A stretch of DNA of 64,000 nt from contig OY970399.1 in assembly GCA_963720545.1 (NCBI GenBank), positions 544,001 to 608,000 on the forward strand. Reading direction: 5' to 3'. The DNA comes from an uncultured Acidobacteriota bacterium. GTDB taxonomy: Bacteria; Acidobacteriota; Vicinamibacteria; Fen-336. The notes beneath the pieces are model-generated. The model saw nothing but the letters and a program-made list of their open reading frames with translations. It did no database searches and was not told the DNA's origin. Both the position numbers and the translations under genes were made by a program. Numbering within the stretch: position 1 is the stretch's first letter; each line of letters begins with the position of its first letter. Shown here in pieces: positions 10,386 through 22,308 of the stretch.

Positions 10386-11072
10386 CTGCGCGCCCGCCGC
10401 CTCGGCCGCGTGCCCTACGCCGAAGGCCTGCGCCTGCAGGCGCAGCTGGTGGCGGAGCGCCAGCAGGACCTGGTCGAAGACACCCTGCTGCTCCTCGAGC
10501 ACGATCCGGTGTTCACTCTCGGCCGCAACGCGCGCAAGGAGCACGTGCTGTTCCCCGAGGAATGGCTGCGCGGCCGCGGCTTCGAGGTGTTCGAGTCCGG
10601 GCGCGGCGGCGACGTCACCTACCATGGCCCCGGCCAGCTGGTCGGCTACCCGATCTTCAAGCTGCCGCCCGCGCGCCGCGATGTGCACCGCTACGTGCGG
10701 GCGCTCGAAGACGTGATGATCCGGACCTGCGCCGCCTACGGAATCTCGGCGGGACGCGTCGCGGGAATGACGGGCGCCTGGGTCGGGGAGCAGAAGATCG
10801 GCGCCATCGGCGTGCGCATCGCCCGCTGGGTGACCTCCCACGGTTTCGCGCTCAACGTCAACAATTCGCTCGAGCCGTTTTCCCTCATTGTTCCGTGCGG
10901 CATCGCCGGCAAGGGTGTCACGAGCCTCGGCGCGCTGCTCGGCCGTGAAGAGCCGCTCGAGCGCGTGATGGACCGCATCGAGGAAAACGTCGGCGCGTTG
11001 CTGGCGCCCCGCAACGACGCCGACGCCGAGGCGGCTACCGAGACGGCGCGGCCGGCCGCAGCGCTGCGCTGA
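10386..11072 (+). CDS. lipB: Lipoyl(octanoyl) transferase LipB
   Basis: LLEHDPVFTLG, RGGDVTYHGPGQLVGYP, KIGAIG, SHGFALN, IVPCG; start uncertain (CTG 10386 or GTG 10410). Confidence 0.92.
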   Translation: MRARRLGRVPYAEGLRLQAQLVAERQQDLVEDTLLLLEHDPVFTLGRNARKEHVLFPEEWLRGRGFEVFESGRGGDVTYHGPGQLVGYPIFKLPPARRDVHRYVRALEDVMIRTCAAYGISAGRVAGMTGAWVGEQKIGAIGVRIARWVTSHGFALNVNNSLEPFSLIVPCGIAGKGVTSLGALLGREEPLERVMDRIEENVGALLAPRNDADAEAATETARPAAALR

Positions 11073-12411
11073 TTCGCTCCGCCAGCACCGCGGCGTCGGC
11101 GATGGCGGCGTTGATCGAGACACCGCGGCAGCCGTTGCCGCCGACGAACAGGGCGCCGCGGCTCGCTGCCAGCGCCTCGATGCGCGCGACGCGCGCGGTG
11201 TGGCCGGGCGCGTACTGCGGGATCCCGGCGCGATGCCGAAAGACGCGCACGAAGCGTGGCGCCGCGGTGATGCCCATGACGCGCCGCAGGTCGGAGCGCG
11301 CCGCGACCTCCAGCTCCTGGTCGGAAAGCTCGAGCACCTGCGGCGCCGCCGCCCCGCCGAGCATGGCGCGCAGCAGCGCGTGCCCGGCTGGGGCACGGTT
11401 CGCGAAGATCGCCGAATCCCAGAGCACCCCGAGGGTTTTCAAACCCTCGCCGCGGCCGGCGAGCACGCCGAAGCCGTCGAGCGGCCGCGACAGGTCGGCG
11501 CTGCGGTAACCGAGCGCCACCACCGCCACGTCCGCGGCGCCGATCGCCAACAGCTCCCGCGCGAGCAGCGCGTCGATGCCGGCGACCACCTCTGCGGCGG
11601 CGGCAGGCGGACAGCAGAGCGCAACGGCGTCGGCGACGAGCGTCTCGCCGGTGCGCAACTGCAGTCGGAAGCCGCCTTCCGGGCGGTCGATGTCGATGCG
11701 CGCAACCGCCGCTTTGGTGCGCAGCGCCGGGCCCACGCTGCGCGCCAGGCTCGCGGCGAGCGTCGCGACACCACCGCGCAGCGAGACCAGCCGGGCCCGG
11801 TGGCGGCCGCCGCGGCGGCGCGCCAGCATGCCGCGGAACAGGCTTCCGTGCTCTTGCTCGAGGCGGCAAAGTGCCGGGAACGCGGCGCCGCTCGACAGCT
11901 CGCGCGGGTCGCCCGCGAAGACGCCCGCCGCCATCACGTCGGCGATGGCCGCCGCTGCCTCCTCGCCCAGGCGCCGTGCGAGGAACGCGTGTACGGTCTC
12001 GTCGCCGCTTTCCGCCGACGCAGTGCCCCGGGGCACGAACGGCTCGCGCAGCAGGCGCAGCTTGCCGCGCGCGCTGAGCAGCCGGCTGCGGGCAAACGAC
12101 GCGGGCCCCGTGGGCACGCGATGCAGCTCCCGGCCGCGATAGACGTAGCGCCGCCGCGCGTTGGCGTTGCTCGATTCGATCGCATCCTCGAGGCCGAGTG
12201 CCGCGATCAGCGAGCGGGTGGCCGGCTGGTTGTCGAGCCAGCCGTTGGCGCCGGCTTCGACCGTGTAGCCGTCGGCCTCCAGGGTGCACAGCTTGCCGCC
12301 CGCGCCTTGCGCCGCTTCGAGCACCACCGCCGTGATGCCGCCCTGCGCCAGGAGGCCGTGCGCGAGCGCCAGCCCGGAGACGCCGCCGCCGACGATCGCG
12401 ACCCGTTTCAC
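11035..12411 (-). CDS. hemY: HemY-type protoporphyrinogen oxidase
   Basis: VAIVGGGVSGL FAD motif, EAGAN, GVFAGDP, GFGVL, IPQY..GH; last gene of the hem operon. Confidence 0.9.
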   Translation of the reverse strand: MKRVAIVGGGVSGLALAHGLLAQGGITAVVLEAAQGAGGKLCTLEADGYTVEAGANGWLDNQPATRSLIAALGLEDAIESSNANARRRYVYRGRELHRVPTGPASFARSRLLSARGKLRLLREPFVPRGTASAESGDETVHAFLARRLGEEAAAAIADVMAAGVFAGDPRELSSGAAFPALCRLEQEHGSLFRGMLARRRGGRHRARLVSLRGGVATLAASLARSVGPALRTKAAVARIDIDRPEGGFRLQLRTGETLVADAVALCCPPAAAAEVVAGIDALLARELLAIGAADVAVVALGYRSADLSRPLDGFGVLAGRGEGLKTLGVLWDSAIFANRAPAGHALLRAMLGGAAAPQVLELSDQELEVAARSDLRRVMGITAAPRFVRVFRHRAGIPQYAPGHTARVARIEALAASRGALFVGGNGCRGVSINAAIADAAVLAERISAALRPAAPSR

Positions 12412-12422
12412 TGGTGGGCGGC

Positions 12423-13814
12423 CTACACCGTCCGCGAAAAACCGGTGCGTGCCGAGGCGCCGCGGCGATACCGGTCGAACACCATGCAGACGTTGCGCAC
12501 CAGCAGGCGCCCGCGTTCGGTCACCGCCACCTCGGTGGCGTCGGGCGTCACCGCAACGATGCCGTCTTCGCTGAGCGCGCCGCGCAGCTCGGCCAGCTCG
12601 GCGGCGAAGTAGTCGCGGAACGACACGCCGAAGCGGCTCTCGACCGCGCGCGCCGCGACGCGAAAGTTGCACATCAGTTCCGCGATCACATGCCGCCGCA
12701 GCCGGTCGTCGGCGTCGAGGCGAAAGCCGCGCTCGATCGGGAAGCGGCCGCGGTCGAGCGCTTCGTAGTACTCGCTCAGCTTCTTAACGTTCTGCGCGAA
12801 CGCCCCGGAGACGTCGCCGATGGCGGAAACACCGCAGCCGACCATGTCCGGCGCGGGCCGCGTGGTGTAGCCCATGAAGTTACGGTGCAGGATGCCGGCG
12901 CGCGCGGCGATCGCGAGTTCGTCCTCCGGCACCGCGAAGTGGTCCATGCCGATCGCGGCATAGCCGGCGCCGAGGAAGCGTTCGCGCGCCATGAGGAAGA
13001 GCGCCATCTTCTCCTCGGCCGAGGGCAGCGCCTCTGGCGACAGCGTGCGCTGATGGCCCTTCATCCACGGCACGTGCGCGTAGGAATAGATCGCGGTGCG
13101 CTCCGGCCGGTTGCGCAACACGCTGTCGAGCGTGCGCGCGAAGCCGTCGCGGGTCTGCCGCGGCAGCCCGTAGATCAGGTCGACGTTGGTCGAGCGGAAA
13201 CCCGCGGCGCGCGCCTGCGCCAGCAGCGTCCAGGTTTCTTCCTCCGACTGGATGCGGTTGACCGCCTGCTGCACGGGCGCGTCGAAGTCCTGCACGCCCA
13301 GCGAAAGGCGGTTGAAGCCGAGGCGCCGCAGCGTATCGATGTGCTCGGCCGTGGTGACGCGCGGGTCCACCTCGATGGCCGCTTCGCCCTGCGGGTCGAG
13401 GTCGAAGTGCTGCGCGACCACGTCCTGCAGCTCCTGCATCTGCGCGGGAGCCAGGTACGTGGGGGTGCCGCCGCCCCAGTGATACTGCACCACGCGGCGG
13501 CGGCCGCCGAGTGCGCCGGCAAGCATCGCCAGCTCGCGGTGCAGGTAGCCGAGGTACTTTTCGGCCACCGAGCGGTTCTTGGTGATGATCACCATGCAGC
13601 CGCAGAAAGTGCAGCGCTCTTCGCAGAAGGGCAGGTGGAGGTAGAGCGACAGCGGCTGATCCGGTGCTCGCGCCGCGGCGGCCAGCTGCTCGCGGTATGC
13701 GGGCTCGTCGAACGCGCTGCTGAACTCGAGCGCGGTCGGATACGACGTGTAGCGCGGACCGGGCCGGTCGTAGGCCCGCAGCAGCTCCAGCGGCACGGCC
13801 GCGGCGGCGCTCAA
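12423..13814 (-). CDS. hemN: Oxygen-independent coproporphyrinogen III oxidase (radical SAM)
   Basis: GPRYTSYP, YLHLPFCEERCTFCGC, GGGTP, MDHFA, RNFMGY. Confidence 0.95.
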   Translation of the reverse strand: MSAAAAVPLELLRAYDRPGPRYTSYPTALEFSSAFDEPAYREQLAAAARAPDQPLSLYLHLPFCEERCTFCGCMVIITKNRSVAEKYLGYLHRELAMLAGALGGRRRVVQYHWGGGTPTYLAPAQMQELQDVVAQHFDLDPQGEAAIEVDPRVTTAEHIDTLRRLGFNRLSLGVQDFDAPVQQAVNRIQSEEETWTLLAQARAAGFRSTNVDLIYGLPRQTRDGFARTLDSVLRNRPERTAIYSYAHVPWMKGHQRTLSPEALPSAEEKMALFLMARERFLGAGYAAIGMDHFAVPEDELAIAARAGILHRNFMGYTTRPAPDMVGCGVSAIGDVSGAFAQNVKKLSEYYEALDRGRFPIERGFRLDADDRLRRHVIAELMCNFRVAARAVESRFGVSFRDYFAAELAELRGALSEDGIVAVTPDATEVAVTERGRLLVRNVCMVFDRYRRGASARTGFSRTV

Positions 13815-14887
13815 GCGCTCACCCGCTCGCTTTGCTCGCGCACCGCGTCCACCAGCACCTGCGCGTGATCGGGCGGCGTCATCGGCAGGATGCCGTGGCC
13901 GAGGTTGAAGATGTGTCCGCCGCCGGCGCGCGCGGCGGCCGCCAGCACGGCGGCGATGCGCTCACGGATCGCCTGCGGCGGCGCCAGCAGCACGGCGGGA
14001 TCGAGGTTCCCCTGCAGCGCCGGGCCGCGCCCGAGCTTCTGCCGCGCGTCGTCGAGGTCCACGCGCCAGTCCACCCCCACCACGTCGGCGCGCACGTCGC
14101 GCACCCGCGACAGCCGCCCGGCCGAGCCTTCGCCGGCATAGTAGATCCGCGGCGGGCTGGCACCTTGTGGACTGGCACTCGCCACGGCGTCCATCACCTG
14201 GCGCGCATAGGGAATCGCGAACGTCTCGTCGTCGTCCTTCGACAGGATGCCGGCCCAGCTGTCGAACAGCATCACCGCCTGCGCACCCGCCTCGGCCTGC
14301 GCCGCCAGCGACAGGGCCGCCGTCGCCGCGCAGATGGCGAGCAGGCGGTGCGCGGTGGCCGGGTCGTTGTAGAGGAGCGACTTCAGCGCAGCGAAGTTCT
14401 TCGTGCCGCCACCCTCGACGAGGTAGGCCGCGACGGTGAACGGCGCGCCGGCAAAGCCGATGAGCGGTACCGTTGGCGGCAGCGCGCCGCGCACCAGCCG
14501 CAGCGTCTCCAGCAGCCAGGGTGTTGCTTCGGCGGCGGGTGCGACGCGCAGCGTATCGACGTCGGCCGGCGTGCGGATGGTGCGCGCCAGCTTCGGTCCG
14601 GGGGCAAAAGCCACGTCAACCCCCATGCCCGGCAGGCCGATGAGAATGTCGGAGAAGACGATCGCCGCGTCCACGCCGAAGCGGCGGATCGGCTGCAAGG
14701 TCAGTTCGCAGGCGATCTCCGGGGTCTTGCAGCTCGTCAGGAAATCGTAGCGCTCACGCACCGCGCGGTACTCCGGCAGGTAGCGCCCGGCCTGGCGCAT
14801 CATCCACACCGGCGTGCGCGGTACGTCCTCGCCGCGGCACGCGCGCAGGAAGAGCGCGTCTTCGTGCTGGCTGCGCGGCTCACTCAT
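13811..14887 (-). CDS. hemE: Uroporphyrinogen decarboxylase
   Basis: PVWMMRQAGRYLPEY, FSDIL, IGFAGAPFT, QGNLDP, FNLGHG. Confidence 0.96.
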   Translation of the reverse strand: MSEPRSQHEDALFLRACRGEDVPRTPVWMMRQAGRYLPEYRAVRERYDFLTSCKTPEIACELTLQPIRRFGVDAAIVFSDILIGLPGMGVDVAFAPGPKLARTIRTPADVDTLRVAPAAEATPWLLETLRLVRGALPPTVPLIGFAGAPFTVAAYLVEGGGTKNFAALKSLLYNDPATAHRLLAICAATAALSLAAQAEAGAQAVMLFDSWAGILSKDDDETFAIPYARQVMDAVASASPQGASPPRIYYAGEGSAGRLSRVRDVRADVVGVDWRVDLDDARQKLGRGPALQGNLDPAVLLAPPQAIRERIAAVLAAAARAGGGHIFNLGHGILPMTPPDHAQVLVDAVREQSERVSA

Positions 14888-16184
14888 GGGCAATGCGCAT
14901 CGCCTCGGCGGCCGCCGCGACGGTTGCGTCGATCTGGGCATCGGTGTGGGCGATGGAGATGAAGTTGGCCTCGAACTGCGACGGGGCGAGGAAAAAGCCG
15001 CGGTCGAGCATCACGTGGAAGAAACGGCCATAGCGCGTGGCGTCGCTGGCCTTCGCCGAGGGCCAGTCGACGACCGCGTCTGCGGTGAAGAACAGCGTCC
15101 ACATGGACGCGGCGCGCTGGATGCGGCACGGCACGCCCTGTGCGGCGATGGCCCCCGCGATGCCCTGCTCGAGCCGCGCGCCGAGGGCTTCGAGCCGCGT
15201 GTAGAGATCGGGCATCGCGGCAATCGTGCGCAGCGTCGCGAGCCCTGCCGCCATGCCGAGCGGGTTGCCCGACAGCGTACCCGCCTGGTACACGGGCCCT
15301 TCCGGGGCCACCTGGCTCATCAGGTCGCGGCGCCCGCCGTAGGCTGCGACCGGCAGGCCGCCGCCGACGATCTTGCCGAGGGTCGTGAGGTCGGGCCGCA
15401 CCGAGAACCGCTCCTGCGCGCCACCGCGGCTCACGCGGAAGCCGGTCATCACCTCGTCGAAGATGAGGAGCGCGCCGTGCTCGTCGCACAGCGCGCGCAG
15501 ACCGCCCAGGAAGCCCGCGGCCGGCACGACCACGCCCATGTTGCCGACCACCGGTTCGACGATGAGCGCGGCAACCTTGCCGGGATTGGCGGCAAACAGC
15601 GCGGACACATCGGCGAGGTCGTTGAAGCGGGCGTTCAGTGTATCGCGCGCCGTGGCCGGCGTGACCCCGGGGCTGTCCGGCGTGCCGAAGGTCGCGGCAC
15701 CCGAGCCGGCGCGGATCAGGAACGAGTCGGCATGGCCGTGGTAGCAGCCCTCGAACTTGATGACACGATCCCGGCCGGTAGCCGCACGCGCCAGCCGGAT
15801 CGCGGACATGGTGGCCTCGGTGCCCGAGTTCACCATGCGCACCTTCTCGATCGCCGGCATGAGGCTCGTCAGCAGCTCGCCCATCTCCACTTCGAGCCGG
15901 CTCGGCGCGCCGAACGAGATGCCGGCCCGGGCTTGCTCACGCACCGCCGCAACCACCGCCGGGTGCGAGTGGCCCAGGATCATCGGACCCCACGAACCGA
16001 TGTAGTCGACGAGCGCCCGGCCGTCCTCGTCGAAGACCAGCGAGCCTGCGGCGCGGGCGATGAACCGCGGGCTGCCGCCGACTGCGCGGTAGGCGCGCAC
16101 CGGCGAATTGACGCCGCCCGGCAGCACCTTCCCCGCCCGCTCGAAGAGCAACTCGCTGGCGGTCGTTTCGCTCGCTTGCGTCAT
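14880..16184 (-). CDS. hemL: Glutamate-1-semialdehyde 2,1-aminomutase
   Basis: PGGVNSPVRA, NSGTEA, FEGCYHGH, FDEVMTGFR, GKIVGGG. Confidence 0.96.
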   Translation of the reverse strand: MTQASETTASELLFERAGKVLPGGVNSPVRAYRAVGGSPRFIARAAGSLVFDEDGRALVDYIGSWGPMILGHSHPAVVAAVREQARAGISFGAPSRLEVEMGELLTSLMPAIEKVRMVNSGTEATMSAIRLARAATGRDRVIKFEGCYHGHADSFLIRAGSGAATFGTPDSPGVTPATARDTLNARFNDLADVSALFAANPGKVAALIVEPVVGNMGVVVPAAGFLGGLRALCDEHGALLIFDEVMTGFRVSRGGAQERFSVRPDLTTLGKIVGGGLPVAAYGGRRDLMSQVAPEGPVYQAGTLSGNPLGMAAGLATLRTIAAMPDLYTRLEALGARLEQGIAGAIAAQGVPCRIQRAASMWTLFFTADAVVDWPSAKASDATRYGRFFHVMLDRGFFLAPSQFEANFISIAHTDAQIDATVAAAAEAMRIAHE

Positions 16185-16187
16185 GGT

Positions 16188-17171
16188 TCACGCCAGCAGG
16201 CGCGCAGCCTCCTTCGCGAAGTAGGTCAGGATCACGTCGGCGCCCGCGCGGCGGATCGCGATCAGCGACTCCAGCATGGCGCGTTCGCCGTCGATCCAGC
16301 CGTTGGCGGCCGCGGCGCGCAGCATCGCGTACTCGCCCGAGACGTGGTAGGCGCAGACCGGCGCCGCGAAGCGCTGCTTCACTCGCCAGATGACGTCGAG
16401 ATACGGGAGCGCCGGCTTCACCATGACGACGTCGGCGCCCTCTTCGAGATCGAGCGCCACCTCGCGCAGCGCTTCGTCGGAATTGGCGGGATCCATCTGG
16501 TAGCCGCGGCGGTCGCCGAAGGACGGCGTCGAGCCGGCGGCTTCACGAAACGGCCCGTAGAAAGCCGATGCGTACTTCGCCGCGTACGACACCAGCACCA
16601 CGTCGCTGCGTCCGGCGGCGTCGAGAGCGCGACGGATGACGCCGACGCGGCCGTCCATCATGTCGGAGGGCGCAACCACGTCGGCGCCGGCCTCCGCGTA
16701 GACGAGCGCTGCCTGCGCCAGCAGCGGCAGCGTCGCGTCGTTGTCCACCTCGACGCCGCGCGCATCCTCGTGCAGCGGCCCGCAGTGGCCGTGGTCGGTG
16801 TACTCGCACAGGCACACGTCGGCCCACAGCGACATCTGCGGCAACTCAACCCGCAGGGCGCGCAGCGCCGCCGGCACCGGCCCGTTCGGATCCCACGCCG
16901 CCGTCCCGTGCGCGTTCTTCGCGTCAGGGATGCCGAAGAGGATGACGCCCGGCACGCCGAGCGAGTGCAGCTCACGGCATTCCCCTAGCAGCAGGTCGAC
17001 GCTGAGGCGGTCGCAACCGGGCATCGCGCCGATGGGCACGCGCACGTTCTCGCCGCCGCACACGAACAGCGGCGCGATCAGGTCGCTCGGCGCGAGCCGC
17101 GTCTGCGCGAACATCCGGCGCAGCGTCTCGGTGCGCCGCAGGCGCCGCGGCCGCGACAGCGGATAGCTCAA
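16188..17171 (-). CDS. hemB: Porphobilinogen synthase (Zn-binding type)
   Basis: RPRRLR, DVCLCEYTDHGHCG, PSDMMDGR, FYGPFR, MVKPA; TTG start overlapping the hemD stop. Confidence 0.96.
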   Translation of the reverse strand: MSYPLSRPRRLRRTETLRRMFAQTRLAPSDLIAPLFVCGGENVRVPIGAMPGCDRLSVDLLLGECRELHSLGVPGVILFGIPDAKNAHGTAAWDPNGPVPAALRALRVELPQMSLWADVCLCEYTDHGHCGPLHEDARGVEVDNDATLPLLAQAALVYAEAGADVVAPSDMMDGRVGVIRRALDAAGRSDVVLVSYAAKYASAFYGPFREAAGSTPSFGDRRGYQMDPANSDEALREVALDLEEGADVVMVKPALPYLDVIWRVKQRFAAPVCAYHVSGEYAMLRAAAANGWIDGERAMLESLIAIRRAGADVILTYFAKEAARLLA

Positions 17172-17959
17172 TGGAGCCGCACCCTGCGACCTTCGATTGC
17201 GGCCATCACCGCTTCCGCCAGGCCGTCCACCGTGCGGCAGCGCGGTTCGACGTCGGCGGGCGCGCCCAGCGACGCGAGCGCTGCCGACGTCGTCGGCCCG
17301 ACACTGGCCACCACGGTCCTCTTCACAAGCACCCGAAGCGAAGCATCGTCGAACGCCGCGGCCAGTGAAAAGGCGGCGGACGGCGCAAGGAACGTCACCG
17401 CGGCGATCTCGCCGGCATCGAGCAGCGCGCGGAAGCGCCCTGTCTCCGCGGGCTCGGTGGCGCTGGTCGTGTAGGCAACCGGGTCGCAGACCGTGAAGCC
17501 CATCGCCTCGAGGCGCAATCGGAAGTCGGGAGCGGCGCGCTCCGAGCGCGGCCACAGCACCCGGCCGCGACCAACTGCGTCGAGAGCCGCCGCGAGCCCT
17601 GCCGCGCCCGCGTCCGGTGCCGCCACCACCACGTCCGGCGCGATGTCCTCGGCAAGCAGCGCTTCGGCAGTCGCCGGCCCGGCCGCCGCCACCAACGGGC
17701 GCTCGGCACATCGCGCCAGCAGCATCGTGAAGCCGCGGCCGCACGCAGCCGCAACCGCGCGCCGGCTCGTGAACGCGACGCTGCGGAACGTCGCGAGGTC
17801 GCGAAGCGCCGCGTCGAGCGGGGCGAAGTCGCCGGGCTCGCCAATGGCGGTGGCGGCAAGGGGAAACGGCGCCGCGCCGCGCCGCGCCAGCGCTTGCCAG
17901 AGCGGGCCGCCCGCGCCCTCGTCGCGGGTGATGACGACGATGGGCCGTGCCGCGTTCAT
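17168..17959 (-). CDS. hemD: Uroporphyrinogen-III synthase
   Basis: VITR, FTSRRAV, GPATA, AYTT, SVGPTT; position between hemC and hemB. Confidence 0.85.
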   Translation of the reverse strand: MNAARPIVVITRDEGAGGPLWQALARRGAAPFPLAATAIGEPGDFAPLDAALRDLATFRSVAFTSRRAVAAACGRGFTMLLARCAERPLVAAAGPATAEALLAEDIAPDVVVAAPDAGAAGLAAALDAVGRGRVLWPRSERAAPDFRLRLEAMGFTVCDPVAYTTSATEPAETGRFRALLDAGEIAAVTFLAPSAAFSLAAAFDDASLRVLVKRTVVASVGPTTSAALASLGAPADVEPRCRTVDGLAEAVMAAIEGRRVRLH

Positions 17960-18933
17960 CGTTCCACCGCCGCGGCCAGCGCAGGATTGGCGGCGTGCGC
18001 CGCGCGCACTTCAGAAAGGATGGCGCTGGCACCCTCGGCGAGCGCGCGGCCTCCAAGGACATCGCCGAACGCAACCGCAGCCGCCTCGCTCGTGACCTCC
18101 TCGACAGCACGCTGCCGCACCACTTGCTGTCCATTGACGCTTGCGACCATCGCATCGAGCTGCAGGCGGCCGTCCTGCCAGGTGCCCAGAGCGCCCACCG
18201 GCGCCTGACAGCCGCCTTCGACGCGATGGAGGAACGCCCGCTCGGCAGCCACCGCCAGGCGGGTCGGCCCATGGTCGAGCGCCGCGGCCAGCGCGCATGC
18301 GCGTGCGTCGCCGCTGCGCACCTGCACGGCAAGCGCCCCCTGTCCCGGCGCCGGCACGAAGTCACGCGCGTCGAGCAGCTCGCTCACACGCCGTGCGAGC
18401 CCCAGGCGCGCGAGCCCGGCCTGCGCCAGGATCACGGCGTCGCAGTCGCCGCGGTCGAGTTTCGCGAGGCGGGTCGGCACGTTGCCGCGCAGGTCGCACA
18501 CGCGCAGGTCGGGGCGGGCCGCGAGCAGCTGCGCGCGGCGGCGCAGCGACGACGTGCCGATGCGCGCGCCGCGGCCGAGCTGCCGCAACCCGCCGCCGGC
18601 GCGCGACACCAACGCGTCGCGCGGATCCTCGCGTTCCAGGATCGCGGCAAGCTGCAGGCCGGCGCCCGGCGCCGTCTGCAGGTCCTTGAGGCTGTGGACG
18701 GCGATGTCGACGCGCCCTTCTAACAGTGCATCCTCGATCTCGCGCGTGAAGACCCCCTGGGTGCCGATGGCGGCGAACGCCGCGGCGGCGGCCTGGTCAC
18801 CGGCGGTCCGGACGACGACCACCTCGATGCCGAGCCCAGGCGTCGCCTCCAGGAGCCGTTCGCGGACATGCCCGGCCTGCCACAAGGCCAGGGCGCTGCC
18901 GCGCGTGCCGAGCCGCAGCGCTGCGTCAGCCAA
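17956..18933 (-). CDS. hemC: Hydroxymethylbilane synthase (porphobilinogen deaminase)
   Basis: LGTRGSALALWQ, AVHSLKD, GTSSLRR, RGNVPTR, PAPGQG, GGCQAP. Confidence 0.96.
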   Translation of the reverse strand: MADAALRLGTRGSALALWQAGHVRERLLEATPGLGIEVVVVRTAGDQAAAAAFAAIGTQGVFTREIEDALLEGRVDIAVHSLKDLQTAPGAGLQLAAILEREDPRDALVSRAGGGLRQLGRGARIGTSSLRRRAQLLAARPDLRVCDLRGNVPTRLAKLDRGDCDAVILAQAGLARLGLARRVSELLDARDFVPAPGQGALAVQVRSGDARACALAAALDHGPTRLAVAAERAFLHRVEGGCQAPVGALGTWQDGRLQLDAMVASVNGQQVVRQRAVEEVTSEAAAVAFGDVLGGRALAEGASAILSEVRAAHAANPALAAAVER

Positions 18934-20200
18934 GGATGTCCTCGTGCTCGGGCGTGAGCCCGAACAACTCGTGTGCCGCGCGCAGCCGCGCGCTGCCCTC
19001 GGCGGTGCGCGGGTCGATGCCGCGCAACTGGCTGGCCGGTGCCTGCAGCAGTTTGTTGACGAGCGCACGCGTGAGCCGCTCGATGTCGCGGCGATGCTCG
19101 GCCGGGAAGCCCGCGAGGTGGCGCTCGACCTCGGCTTCGCGGATCGACTCGAAGCGTGCGCGCAGCCGGCGCTCGAACGGCGGCCGGCGGAAGCTCTCGT
19201 CCCACGCGACGAAGCGGCCGCACTCCTGCGCGACGATGTTCTCGACCTTGCGCACTTCCGCCTCGCGCAGGCTCTGGTTGCGGGCCACCACCTCACCGAC
19301 GTCGTCGATCGACACCAGCGTGACGCCGACGCCGTTAACCGCGGCGCCCGGTTCGACCGCGCGCGGCACCGAGACGTCGATCACCAACAGCGGCCGGCCC
19401 GCGCGACGCGACACGCAGCGATCGAGCGCGGCGCGGGTGAGCAGCGGCGCTTCGGTGCGCACGGCCACCAGCACCACGTCAACGTCGTCGAGGACCGTGT
19501 CGATGTCCTCGAGCCCGACGGCCCGGCCGCGCACTTCCCTGGCCAGGGCCTGCGCGCGCGCCGCGGTGCGGTTCGCGACATAGAGCGCCGCGGCACGCTT
19601 GTCGGCCGCGTGCAGCGCCAGCAGCCTGCCGGTCTCGCCCGCGCCGATCACCAGCACCTTGCGGCTCGCGAACCCGGCCGTGCCGCGCGCGGCGAGCGAC
19701 ACCGCGGCCGACGCCACCGACAAGGCGCCCCTGGCAAGCGCCGTTTCCGCGCGTCCGCGCCGTCCTGCGCCGAGCGCCGCGGCCACCAGCCGCTCGAGCC
19801 GCGGACCCGAGGCGCCCGCCGCACGCGACAGCGCCAGCGCGTCCTTCACCTGGCCGAGGATCTCGGTTTCGCCGAGGATCCGCGACTCGAGGCCGCAGGC
19901 GACTCGCAACAGGTGGCGGCAGGCCGCCTCATCCGAGGCACGCCGCGCCGCGGCTGCCAGGGCCTGCTCACGCTCGGCGCCGAGCGTGCGCGCGACGAAG
20001 CTGTCAAAGGCGCCGCGGTCCGGCGCGAATGCGTACACTTCCGCGCGGTTGCAGGTGCTGAGCACCAGCGCTTCGCGCCAGACGCCGGCCGCGATGCCCT
20101 CGCGCAGCAGCTCCTGCGCCGCGGCGGCATCACGCGCCGCGTGTTCGCGCAGTTCCACCGCCGCTACACGGTGATCGACGCCAAGAAGTTGAAGATCCAT
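18926..20200 (-). CDS. hemA: Glutamyl-tRNA reductase
   Basis: LSTCNRAE, GLES.ILGE..ILGQVK, IGAGETG, IDVSVPR. Confidence 0.93.
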   Translation of the reverse strand: MDLQLLGVDHRVAAVELREHAARDAAAAQELLREGIAAGVWREALVLSTCNRAEVYAFAPDRGAFDSFVARTLGAEREQALAAAARRASDEAACRHLLRVACGLESRILGETEILGQVKDALALSRAAGASGPRLERLVAAALGAGRRGRAETALARGALSVASAAVSLAARGTAGFASRKVLVIGAGETGRLLALHAADKRAAALYVANRTAARAQALAREVRGRAVGLEDIDTVLDDVDVVLVAVRTEAPLLTRAALDRCVSRRAGRPLLVIDVSVPRAVEPGAAVNGVGVTLVSIDDVGEVVARNQSLREAEVRKVENIVAQECGRFVAWDESFRRPPFERRLRARFESIREAEVERHLAGFPAEHRRDIERLTRALVNKLLQAPASQLRGIDPRTAEGSARLRAAHELFGLTPEHEDILG

Positions 20201-20328
20201 CCCTCTCGTACCCGTTCCTGCACGCGCGACCTCGTGGACGGTGGGCGCGTGTTCCAGGGCAAGCGCCCCGGAGTCCTTGCTGAGTTGACCTGCGAAGGAC
20301 CGTTAGAACGGCGGGGGGCGGGAGAAGA
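20201..20328 (-). promoter_or_regulatory. Structured hemA leader: three hairpins closed by pairing of the upstream ORF's last codons with the hemA initiation region
   Basis: Hairpins 20273-20300, 20256-20269 and 20221-20251; CCGUUCU (20305-20311) pairs with GGAACGG (20212-20218); UCUUCUC (20322-20328) pairs with GAGAGGG (20201-20207). Folded by eye. Confidence 0.55.
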
Positions 20329-20788
20329 GCGACGGCGTGAACGCGGCGCGTCTTGCCGAAATGGCGGAGACGACGCCCACGCGCGCATGTCGAAGCCGCG
20401 GCACCAGAAGCTGGGCGCGGCCAAGAAGCGCCGTGACCAGCAGGATGGTGGCGACGATCGGCGCGAGCGAGCCGGGAAGCAGGAAAATGCCGTCGGCGTT
20501 GGCAACAGAATCGACAGGTGGCGCCGCCACGCCAAGATGCAGCGCCACCACCAGTACGCCGAGCACGACCAGCTTGCGCGTGGAGAACGGACGGCCGCGG
20601 CGCCACAGTTCGCGCAGCGCGGCGACGACGGCAAGGGCCGCTCCCCAGCGCACGAAATCGAGCGCGCCGAAGTCGGCCCGGGCAATGCGCGAAAGAAGCA
20701 GCCAGACGTGGAACAGGACCAGCGGCACGCCGGATGCGGCGCCCGCGATCCACAACAACTTCCGGCCAGTCAAGGTCTTGCCAGTCAC
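20303..20788 (-). CDS. Four-helix membrane protein with C-terminal RPPP motif; candidate arrest/leader protein of the hem operon
   Basis: 161 aa, four hydrophobic segments, His27 and His84, ends LFSRPPPF-stop; fills the gap between the GAF gene and hemA. Confidence 0.7.
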   Translation of the reverse strand: MTGKTLTGRKLLWIAGAASGVPLVLFHVWLLLSRIARADFGALDFVRWGAALAVVAALRELWRRGRPFSTRKLVVLGVLVVALHLGVAAPPVDSVANADGIFLLPGSLAPIVATILLVTALLGRAQLLVPRLRHARVGVVSAISARRAAFTPSLFSRPPPF

Positions 20789-20800
20789 CTGCTGCCGACC

Positions 20801-21562
20801 TTACGACGCCGGAGTGCCCCGGTCAAGGCTGATCTGCCCCGGCTGGCGGCGCAGCTCGTCCACCAGCCGCGCGTTGCGCAGGGCCACCACCAGGAACTCG
20901 GCGATGGTTTCGCCGGTGGCCACGTCGTCGAGGCCGAAATCGTCGATCTGGTCGCTCTGCACGTCGATCGCCCCCACCACCTCGCCGCCGTCCATCAGCG
21001 GCACCACCATCTCGGAGCGCGTGTCGAGGACGTCGCGGCGATAGTCGGGGTCGCGGCGCACGTCGCTCACCACCTGCGGCGCGCGCTTGCGCACCGCGCG
21101 GCCGATGATGCCGGCAGCCGGGGCCTGCGCGCGTCCCGCCGACTGGCGGCTCACGCCCTCGCGTCCGGCCCACCGCCCGATCAGGACGCCATCGGTATCG
21201 AGCACGGTGACCGCGACCGAGTTGTAGTTCATCTTTTCCTGGATGGCGCGCGCCGCCTCCTGCATGAGCGCATCGGATTCGAGGATGGACGCGACCCGGT
21301 GGATGACCGAGTTGAGCATGGCCAGGTGGTCGGCGCGGCGCTGGTGGAGGCGCGACTGCGCCCGCAGCGCGGACACTTCCTCGCTGAGTTCACCCAGGCG
21401 CGCGAGCGCCAACCCGTCGGGCCCGCCGCCGGCCCTGTGCGTCGCCGGCCTGCGAACCGCCGGTGCGGCCCGCCTCGCCTTCTTCAGCGGGTTCCTCGTG
21501 GTCGTCTTCTTCTTCACCGCTTTTTTCTTCACCGCGGTCTTCCTGCTGGCGCGCGACTTCAT
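20801..21562 (-). CDS. Stand-alone GAF domain protein with Lys-rich N-terminus
   Basis: GIIGRAV...VSDVRRDPDY...TRSEMVVPL...VVGAIDVQSD...ALRNARL; ATGA overlap with ubiE. Confidence 0.85.
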   Translation of the reverse strand: MKSRASRKTAVKKKAVKKKTTTRNPLKKARRAAPAVRRPATHRAGGGPDGLALARLGELSEEVSALRAQSRLHQRRADHLAMLNSVIHRVASILESDALMQEAARAIQEKMNYNSVAVTVLDTDGVLIGRWAGREGVSRQSAGRAQAPAAGIIGRAVRKRAPQVVSDVRRDPDYRRDVLDTRSEMVVPLMDGGEVVGAIDVQSDQIDDFGLDDVATGETIAEFLVVALRNARLVDELRRQPGQISLDRGTPAS

Positions 21563-22308
21563 CGGGGTTTCTCCGCTCGGTAGAGATGGGCAATGCCGGA
21601 CGTCAGCGATTCCGCGGTGATGGCGGCGAATCCGTTGCGCTCGAGCAGCTCGCAGAAGCGCTGCGGCTCCGGGAACCGCGCGATCGACGACGGCAGGTAT
21701 TCGTAGGCCGAGCGGTCGCCGCTGACGAGCGCGCCGACGCGCGGCAGGACGTGGCGCGAGTAGGAACGGTACAAGGCACCCATGAGGCCGCGTGGGTTCG
21801 AGAACTCGAGTATCAGGAAGCGCCCGCCCGGGCGCAGCACCCGCGCCACCTCGGCCATGGCCTGCTCGAGACGCAGCACGTTGCGGATGCCGAACGAGAC
21901 ACACGCGGCATCGAAGGACGCTGCGGCAAACGACAGGTTCTCCGCATCGCCGCCGAGGAGCGTCGCACGCCCGGCGAGTCCGGCGCGTTCGAGCTTGCCG
22001 TGTCCCAGCGACAGCATCCCCGACGAAAGGTCGATGCCGGCGCCGGTGGTGCCGCCGGTCTTGCGCAGCGCTGCGCGCAGGACATCGGCGGTGCCGGTGC
22101 ACAGGTCGAGGAGTCGCTCGCCGTTTTGCAGTTCCAGCCGCTTCACCAGGCGCCGCCGCCAGCGCAGGTCGGTGCCGCCGGAGAGCAGGTGGTTGAGCAG
22201 GTCGTAGCGGTGCGCGATGCGGTCGAACATCGACCGCACGGCCGCTTTCTCGGGGGCGCCGGGCGTCGGACCGGGCAACACCGCCGACGAGCTCCTCACC
22301 ACGGCCAC
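21559..22308 (-). CDS. ubiE: Demethylmenaquinone methyltransferase (UbiE/MenG)
   Basis: MFDRIAHRYDLLNHLLS, LDLCTGTAD, FGIRNV, RVLRPGG, AYEYLPSSI. Confidence 0.93.
   Translation of the reverse strand: MAVVRSSSAVLPGPTPGAPEKAAVRSMFDRIAHRYDLLNHLLSGGTDLRWRRRLVKRLELQNGERLLDLCTGTADVLRAALRKTGGTTGAGIDLSSGMLSLGHGKLERAGLAGRATLLGGDAENLSFAAASFDAACVSFGIRNVLRLEQAMAEVARVLRPGGRFLILEFSNPRGLMGALYRSYSRHVLPRVGALVSGDRSAYEYLPSSIARFPEPQRFCELLERNGFAAITAESLTSGIAHLYRAEKPR

Follow-up and report, generated by a model that had tools for sequence, protein, structure and literature searches.

A candidate heme-responsive ribosome-arrest leader upstream of the hemA operon in an uncultured member of the Acidobacteriota

We analysed a 64,000-nucleotide (nt) stretch of genomic DNA from an uncultured Acidobacteriota bacterium (assembly GCA_963720545.1, contig OY970399.1, positions 544,001 to 608,000; hereafter the window, in which all coordinates are given unless another locus is named), and focused on a small gene that precedes a heme biosynthesis operon. 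This leader gene (20303..20788, on the minus strand, as are all window features given below) starts with GTG, stops with TAA and encodes a four-helix inner-membrane protein of 161 amino acids (aa) with the C-terminus ...SLFSRPPPF. Its stop codon is separated by a 102-nt spacer (20201..20302), the candidate site of coupling, from the start codon of hemA (18926..20200), the first gene after the leader, which encodes glutamyl-tRNA reductase and whose ATG at 20200 is closely preceded by GAGAGGG. The hemA gene was recognized by Pfam and by TIGR01035 (324 bits, with a cut-off of 210), and the remaining operon, comprising hemC, hemD, hemB, hemL, hemE, hemN and hemY, occupies 11035..18925, where hemY matches the NCBIfam model TIGR00562 (239 bits) and the other genes were assigned by Pfam. 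The first-pass annotation of this DNA had reported a 161-aa open reading frame (ORF) with an SRPPPF end 102 nt ahead of hemA and the operon order hemA-C-D-B-L-E-N-Y, with which the coordinates, the translation and the Pfam and NCBIfam matches agree. In a window with a GC content of 69%, the leader ORF demonstrates codon-position GC values of 0.735/0.525/0.809, which is the pattern of the window's real genes and from which the overlapping frames differ; the leader ORF is a real gene.

The search of the leader protein with Pfam and NCBIfam returned no family, including no Pfam match at E <= 1 to PF11162, and Pfam searches over 32 members gave only scattered weak matches, each confined to one or two members. 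The family profile had no match below E = 0.1 among PDB sequences, and only unnamed Acidobacteriota clusters were found as neighbours of the leader protein in the ESM Atlas. Relatives were collected by a word-indexed search (3 relatives), by exhaustive phmmer against 1.8 billion representatives (10 relatives) and by six-frame searches of related genomes, which yielded more homologs, and alignments of 18 and then 32 sequences were built. Weak matches that proved to be other proteins (L009, L010, L011, L014, L015 and L034) were dropped from all counts, and the genomes with matches L061 and L062 were left outside the locus counts. Across the 32-sequence alignment, identity to the window protein is 20–47%, except for one sequence at 85%. 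Judging from source names and Atlas neighbours, the protein family belongs to the Acidobacteriota, the Vicinamibacteria included; its distribution is patchy, with members in 19 of 401 sampled genomes of the phylum, spread over 8 GTDB families, and, within the organism's own family, in 2 of 30 other genomes. On the evidence of these sequence comparisons, the leader belongs to an uncatalogued Acidobacteriota family.

The columns that are invariant among the 32 sequences are limited to six: His27 (codon 20708..20710, in the outer half of helix 1), Trp48, His84 (codon 20537..20539, in the outer half of helix 3), Arg157, Pro159 and Pro160. Arg47 is kept in 30 sequences and is Lys in the other two. 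Position 158 is occupied by Pro (21 sequences) or Ala (11 sequences), giving the ending R-[P/A]-P-P. In the window protein this ending is Arg157-Pro-Pro-Pro160, an arrest core of the RAPP type encoded by CGC CCC CCG CCG (20309..20320) and followed by a Phe codon and the stop, which places it 1 residue before the C-terminus; across the family, 1–10 residues lie between the motif and the stop. Matches missed by the first pattern (L013, L029, L032 and L033) likewise end in RPPP or RAPP. A profile search of a 5.8-billion-protein collection added 55 further homologs, 54 of which carry R[A/P]PP within 8 residues of the C-terminus (RAPP in 52 and RPPP in 2), although this set is dominated by one subgroup with the ending ...LKDRAPPxxx and the 54 are not independent observations. 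The sole exception is a 102-aa fragment on a 519-nt contig.

ApdA, ApdP and CruR have RAPP as their arrest core, on which the ribosome stalls once RAP occupies the P site and Pro the A site (PMC12992588). According to section 7 of the same report, systematic mutagenesis identified the Arg and the first Pro as essential for arrest, and the Ala-to-Pro change, which creates RPPP, left the arrest of ApdP almost intact in Bacillus subtilis (2.4 vs 1.9 units) and arrest partly intact in ApdA and in Escherichia coli; earlier random screens cited in that section recovered RxPP with G, A, S or P as x. RAPP-type motifs are further described there as depleted from proteomes and enriched at the C-termini of small envelope proteins (PMC12992588). 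RAPP-like arrest peptides are characterized by a core of the form R-[A/G, partly S/D/P]-P-[P/G]. Like them, the leader has its core near the C-terminus, is a small (<300 aa) membrane protein and is encoded co-directionally 5' of the next gene. In the window's genome, R[APG]PP occurs 63 times across 4257 candidate ORFs, a rarity that fits the published depletion, and only 8 of these ORFs have it within 10 residues of the C-terminus.

At 23 loci of the family, the motif draws on the full sets of six Arg and four Pro codons, and this synonymous variation indicates that selection acts on the amino acids and not on the RNA. Codons for Arg, Ala and Pro abound in DNA of 69% GC, and the motif and its position might thus be regarded as a chance or compositional feature of a GC-rich genome without function. 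However, the motif is rare genome-wide and is invariant in 32/32 and 54/55 homologs, down to 20–30% identity and despite synonymous codon changes; these conservation data bring the chance explanation close to refutation, and we hold it to be very unlikely indeed. Among the motif Pro codons, the rare codon CCT is enriched (13/60 vs 8.6% in the same genes, binomial p = 0.0015, the loci being related). Other ORFs of the window's genome that end in RPPP or RAPP within 10 residues of the stop are located at G000:C1:3722510-3723256 (+), 455558-455863 (+) and 1602310-1602708 (+), an example of their endings being ...RLRARRPPPA; some of them may be arrest-type leaders and others spurious ORFs.

The AlphaFold2 model of the leader, built on the 32 homologs, has moderate confidence, with a mean predicted local distance difference test (pLDDT) score of 71.7. 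It comprises helices at residues 5-37, 42-64, 70-88 and 98-123, the last membrane helix (helix 4) being encoded at 20420..20497, then a tail helix at 135-149 and a coil end, so that helix 4 ends 34 residues ahead of Arg157. Mean net charges over the 32 homologs are +3.2 for the N-terminus, +0.4 for loop 1, +2.8 for loop 2, -1.7 for loop 3 and +4.5 for the C-terminal tail. This pattern predicts a protein with both termini inside, in which the N-terminus, loop 2 and the tail face the cytoplasm and loops 1 and 3 face outward, and this topology would place both histidines in the outer halves of inside-to-outside helices. Judged at the sequence level only, His27 and His84 each lie about two thirds of the way along such a helix at similar depth, and their separation is 57–59 residues in 32/32 sequences; Arg47 and Trp48 are found at the outer end of helix 2, at the outer interface. 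Two histidines on separate membrane helices at the same depth, with Arg and Trp nearby, are the usual signature of a heme b site, and the His27/His84 pair is a candidate bis-His heme b site.

The distance between membrane and motif is also conserved. From a helix-4 column (Pro105 in the window protein) to the motif Arg there are 49–55 residues in the 32 sequences (median 51), whereas the His84-to-helix-4 span, across outer loop 3, varies from 11 to 28 residues. The intervening cytoplasmic linker (residues 124-156; 20321..20419) keeps its length, as judged from homolog spacing, while its sequence is free to vary. Pro130 was considered as a near-invariant site and rejected; its distance to the motif is not fixed and its apparent conservation is an alignment effect in the Pro-rich tail. 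Since the exit tunnel holds about 30–40 residues, helix 4 is expected to lie just outside the tunnel when Pro159 is in the P site, and this is reportedly the position where, in force-profile studies, membrane insertion pulls the nascent chain hardest. The structural observations of the first-pass annotation are thus borne out, namely four helices with the last ending about 35 residues before RPPP and, by charge counts, a predicted placement of both histidines near the same outer face. The conservation checks that it proposed also gave the predicted outcome, with both histidines kept (32/32), a terminal RPPP/RAPP (32/32 aligned and 54/55 further homologs) and a conserved helix-to-motif distance.

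The genomic context was examined at 27 loci, the window included. At every locus, the gene after the leader has the same orientation and begins 46–192 nt downstream, and in 7 of the 27 a heme biosynthesis operon follows the leader. Among these, hemA stands directly after the leader at four loci (the window, L017, L022 and L024), whereas at the other three (L002/L035, L003/L036 and L019/L039) a PF01578 CcsA/HemX-like gene comes first, followed by hemA-hemC and later by hemE, hemN and hemH; hemD and hemL were additionally called in L035. A TonB receptor gene follows the leader at 11/27 loci (10 full-length, 1 at a contig end), and a gene for a 236–242-aa membrane protein without a family does so at 9/27. 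One genome (G016) possesses two leader paralogs, one located before ccsA-hemA (L003/L036) and the other before the gene of this second membrane protein (L013/L053), which suggests that one sensor type is wired to both synthesis and uptake. The first-pass annotation had proposed to check whether homologs precede heme-related genes, and they do so with 7/27 heme operons (3 of them via a HemX/CcsA-like gene) and 11/27 TonB receptors that are nearest to the heme/hemoglobin type. None of the outcomes that it had named as refuting, as far as they can be checked by computation, was observed. Its alternative of MifM-like insertion sensing is disfavoured, since no Sec or YidC gene comes next in the 27 loci.

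The CcsA/HemX-like genes are located at L035:2642-3466, L036:2508-3368 and L039:10722-11531 (-); they precede hemA, and the arrangement otherwise resembles the hemA-hemX pairing of Firmicutes. The hemA gene of L044 (2494-3802 (+)) and the gene for the family-less membrane protein of L050 (5109-5894 (+)) are each split over two frames, owing to either a frameshift or an assembly error. On the upstream side, the genes differ by locus and include QueE, an aminotransferase, PGDH, a Zn peptidase and MalQ. In the window, at 20801-22308 (-), a GAF-domain gene lies 5' of the leader on the same strand and ends 12 nt short of its GTG, with a ubiE/COQ5-type methyltransferase gene upstream of it, also on the same strand. 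A search for RNA runs found one metatranscriptome, which holds 7% of the sampled words as contigs, a form that shows neither transcript levels nor ends. A promoter and terminator scan at the leader locus returned nothing exceeding shuffles, and because no promoter-like site was found between the leader and these upstream genes, the leader may be co-transcribed with the GAF-domain and methyltransferase genes.

For 10/10 full-length receptors, the best model is TIGR01785 or TIGR01786 (heme/hemoglobin) at 150–254 bits; the siderophore model scores 72–113 bits where scored, and the B12 and copper models score 35–102 bits. PhuR is the closest solved structure of one receptor (1e-25), the match covering mainly the plug domain. 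The receptors are nearer to heme receptors than to other curated types, yet they are not members by the curated test.

The membrane protein of 236–242 aa, modelled with about seven helices (pLDDT 78.3), is highly conserved, with invariant blocks that include H40-L-x-W-W, TYGxGTxTEA, PLAQG, RLSG and LPGIGG. Its genes include L052:9139-9864 (+), L041:5040-5747, L048:8002-8709 (-), L049:7942-8661 (-), L053:2549-3271 and L029:676-1407 (-). A 7-helix protein of this type, about 50% identical, is encoded after the receptor in 4/10 receptor loci, and at one locus the 7-helix gene is followed by a receptor-like gene. It was assigned to no family by Pfam or NCBIfam and matched no PDB sequence, its Atlas neighbours are unnamed, Foldseek returned only weak 7-helix look-alikes (E >= 0.02), and a single query gave no match in the window's genome. 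The 7-helix protein is a candidate inner-membrane partner of the heme-type receptor.

These contexts bear on the nature of the signal. An RxPP arrest leader might respond to something other than heme, such as iron or another metal on the two histidines, the membrane or redox state, or the efficiency of insertion. Histidine can bind metals, the known ligand-responsive RAPP leaders, CruR and CutF, all sense copper, surveys tie RAPP leaders to TonB receptors and metal genes, and the receptors of the leader family miss the cut-offs and motifs of heme receptors. On the other hand, the family has no Cys or Met motif and just two conserved histidines, both buried in helices, and its receptors score 35–74 bits with copper-receptor models vs 150–254 bits with heme models. 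Neither iron nor copper explains why the sensor heads complete hemA-to-hemH/hemY operons at 7 loci; low iron, in particular, should lower heme synthesis and not raise it. A pure insertion monitor is at odds with the absence of Sec and YidC genes downstream in the 27 loci. A signal other than heme appears unlikely to us. Heme itself is one signal that should lower both heme synthesis and uptake via a heme-type receptor, whereas iron would be expected to affect these two processes oppositely.

The family is linked to heme genes, its two histidines and RxPP motif are invariant, its spacing is fixed and its topology agrees with the charge pattern. We propose that the leader is a heme-responsive arrest leader, analogous but unrelated to the copper-sensing CruR and CutF, and put the chances of this reading at about even. 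In this reading, the occurrence of stalling, the identity of the ligand, the sign of the response and the coupling route are all inferred. The leader would be inserted co-translationally as a four-helix inner-membrane protein with both termini inside, and the ribosome would stall at Arg157-Pro-Pro-Pro160, the P site being occupied by R-P-P and the A site by Pro, in the same arrangement as on RAPP. During the stall, about 35 residues would fill the exit tunnel while helix 4 is just entering the membrane, and the ribosome parked at the 3' end of the leader would allow expression of the downstream genes, either through an opened hemA ribosome-binding site or through a block to Rho. In the nascent chain, His27 and His84, with Arg47 and Trp48 at the outer interface, would bind heme, and heme-dependent packing or insertion of helix 4, a release route suggested by the fixed spacing of 49–55 residues, would pull on the chain and release the stall. 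When heme is plentiful, heme synthesis (in the window) or uptake (in the relatives) would then fall. The full scheme, in which heme ligation between helices 1 and 3 of the nascent chain generates the force that releases the RxPP arrest and sets both synthesis and uptake Acidobacteriota-wide, is put forward tentatively, as somewhat short of an even chance.

Several results weigh against the proposal of a heme-responsive arrest leader, beginning with the RNA between the leader and its target. Masking of the downstream ribosome-binding site by the stall zone is not supported. At the junction of leader and hemA in the window, the LFSR codons are base-paired with the GAGAGGG of hemA in the fold of lowest energy, but its z-score is only -1.18; in silico blocking of the ribosome-covered zone did not consistently expose the next start (22 loci); and pairing of the stall zone with the Shine-Dalgarno region was no better than that of other segments of the same gene, with a median percentile of 0.27 and 2/23 loci at <= 0.1. 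Concerning the two sides of the comparison with heme proteins, Foldseek with the leader model returned nothing at E <= 0.001 and VIA-align returned only generic helical hairpins (Z <= 6.8), neither of them a heme-protein match. The receptors remain below the curated heme/hemoglobin cut-offs of 317 and 324 bits. The heme-receptor motif consists of FRAP and NPNL boxes with a His between them; a FRAP box is present in 2/10 receptors and FRAP...NPDL in 1/10, and a His between the boxes in 0/10. For a second receptor the colicin I receptor is the best solved match and PhuR the third, again mainly over the plug domain. The 7-helix protein, first after the leader at 9/27 loci, is tied to heme only via the receptors behind which it is encoded in 4 loci, and RPPP is also an ordinary polyproline site dependent on elongation factor P (EF-P).

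With respect to the coupling routes, C-rich and G-poor spacers (C/G 2.5–4.6) resembling Rho sites were found in 6 of 21 scored loci, with lengths of 46–55 nt and all from one genus, and the other 15 spacers are not of this composition. Motif Pro codons such as CCUCCG are complementary to the GCGGAG that precedes several receptor genes, a candidate pairing that was not borne out by a ranked control.

The same RNA tests, which showed no coupling structure, are consistent with another role, in which the leader is a working heme-handling membrane protein, for instance a small carrier of b-type heme or a protein that partners HemX, the receptor or the 7-helix protein, and its RxPP tunes its own synthesis via EF-P or has some other role without downstream control. 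The whole four-helix body is conserved rather than the tail alone, most known arrest leaders are shorter and cross the membrane fewer times, and HemX-type membrane proteins are reported to adjust HemA abundance post-translationally (PMC5801465). Nevertheless, outside the helices only RxPP is invariant; 1–10 residues separate it from the stop, and its constant spacing to helix 4 within a freely varying tail is the pattern expected of a tunnel and force device and not of a binding tail. Proteomes, moreover, strongly avoid the motif class (PMC12992588), which was counted 63 times in 4257 ORFs of the window's genome, and the leader is always first and co-directional (27/27). A heme-handling protein devoid of downstream control is, in our estimate, improbable; a heme-handling role and an arrest-leader role are, however, not mutually exclusive.

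How bacteria outside the model groups match heme supply to demand is poorly known; the known controls of heme synthesis are transcription factors, HemA proteolysis and HemX. The leader family offers a post-transcriptional route for heme control that is directly testable. If the proposal of a heme-responsive arrest leader is correct, ligand-sensing arrest peptides of the RAPP class, so far responsive to copper, would extend to heme and to a polytopic membrane sensor, and, under the full scheme above, the leader would be the first arrest peptide to answer an organic cofactor through membrane-protein folding. Two histidines, one motif and one spacer would provide a compact, mutable system for the study of cofactor-driven force on the ribosome. 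The clade of heme-type receptors and the 7-helix membrane protein are flagged as candidate components of heme uptake. In a literature search over open-access papers and preprints, neither a heme-responsive arrest peptide nor a leader preceding hemA came to light; the supplements of the 2025 survey of RAPP and RGPP proteins (PMC12992588) were only partly covered by it, and RAPP-bearing family members may be listed there unremarked. The arrest principle is already known; what is new is the family of sensors, the way they are built and the ligand presumed for them.

Among the systems with which the leader can be compared, HemX of Staphylococcus aureus and Bacillus is a membrane protein of the hemA operon that is reported to limit HemA and heme synthesis (PMC5801465). 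Both HemX and the leader are membrane proteins encoded in a hemA operon, and a HemX/CcsA-like gene lies between the leader and hemA at 3 loci. However, HemX is a PF01578 member that works through the abundance of HemA and lacks an arrest motif, and the leader is unrelated to it. MifM of Bacillus subtilis is a membrane-inserted leader that controls YidC2 and whose stall is released by the force of insertion; it has one helix. Its principle fits the distance of about 35 residues from helix to stall in the leader, but MifM has an insertase target, a single helix and a different arrest sequence, whereas the leader has four helices and is not followed by an insertase gene.

ApdA, ApdP, ApcA and SecM, together with the small RAPP and RGPP proteins of the 2025 survey, resemble the leader in being small secretory or membrane proteins whose R-A/G/(P)-P-P/G core lies close to the C-terminus, in being encoded ahead of the regulated gene and in their patchy phylogeny. 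They monitor Sec or YidC or precede metal genes, whereas the leader family precedes hemA, ccsA-like, TonB receptor and 7-helix genes. As described in the survey, small RAPP and RGPP proteins precede many gene classes, especially TonB receptors and copper genes; its main text does not contain the word heme, and hemA and cytochrome c assembly genes are outside its top 30 classes downstream of RAPP (PMC12992588). Because only RAPP and RGPP were extracted for the survey (PMC12992588), RPPP members such as the window protein fall outside it.

[quoted passage not shown] The proposal made here resembles CutF in that expression of the next gene would depend on a stall at a C-terminal PPP repeat while the protein is exported co-translationally, with the outcome set by a sensor within the nascent chain. 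In CutF, EF-P matters and the stem-loop masks the cutO ribosome-binding site, whereas no consistent masking structure was found at the leader loci. The expected sign of the response is also opposite, since copper induces the CutF stall.

The closest parallel is CruR (Bp2923, DUF2946/PF11162) of Bordetella pertussis, in which copper, acting via CXXC at a fixed distance from RAPP, relieves arrest, and this relief lets Rho terminate transcription before the receptor gene, so that downstream expression is switched off (PMC9426467). Both CruR and the leader are small envelope proteins encoded first in their operons; in each, only a few residues separate a C-terminal RAPP-type motif from the stop, and the sensor motif keeps a set distance from the arrest motif. 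In the CruR operon, as described there, the genes that come next encode a TonB receptor and, after it, an inner-membrane protein, an order matched by leader, receptor and 7-helix protein in relatives of the window locus. The two are not related in sequence, as PF11162 was found in 0/32 members of the leader family at E <= 0.1. CruR is exported with a signal peptide and has a CXXC copper site, whereas the leader family has four membrane helices in place of a cleaved signal peptide, two intramembrane histidines and no Cys motif, the window protein being devoid of Cys altogether. For CruR, the ligand is copper and Rho dependence was shown, whereas for the leader the presumed ligand is heme. In CruR the ligand relieves arrest and downstream expression is switched off; the same logic is proposed for the leader, and a CruR-like logic with heme as the ligand would be the most economical reading of the locus.

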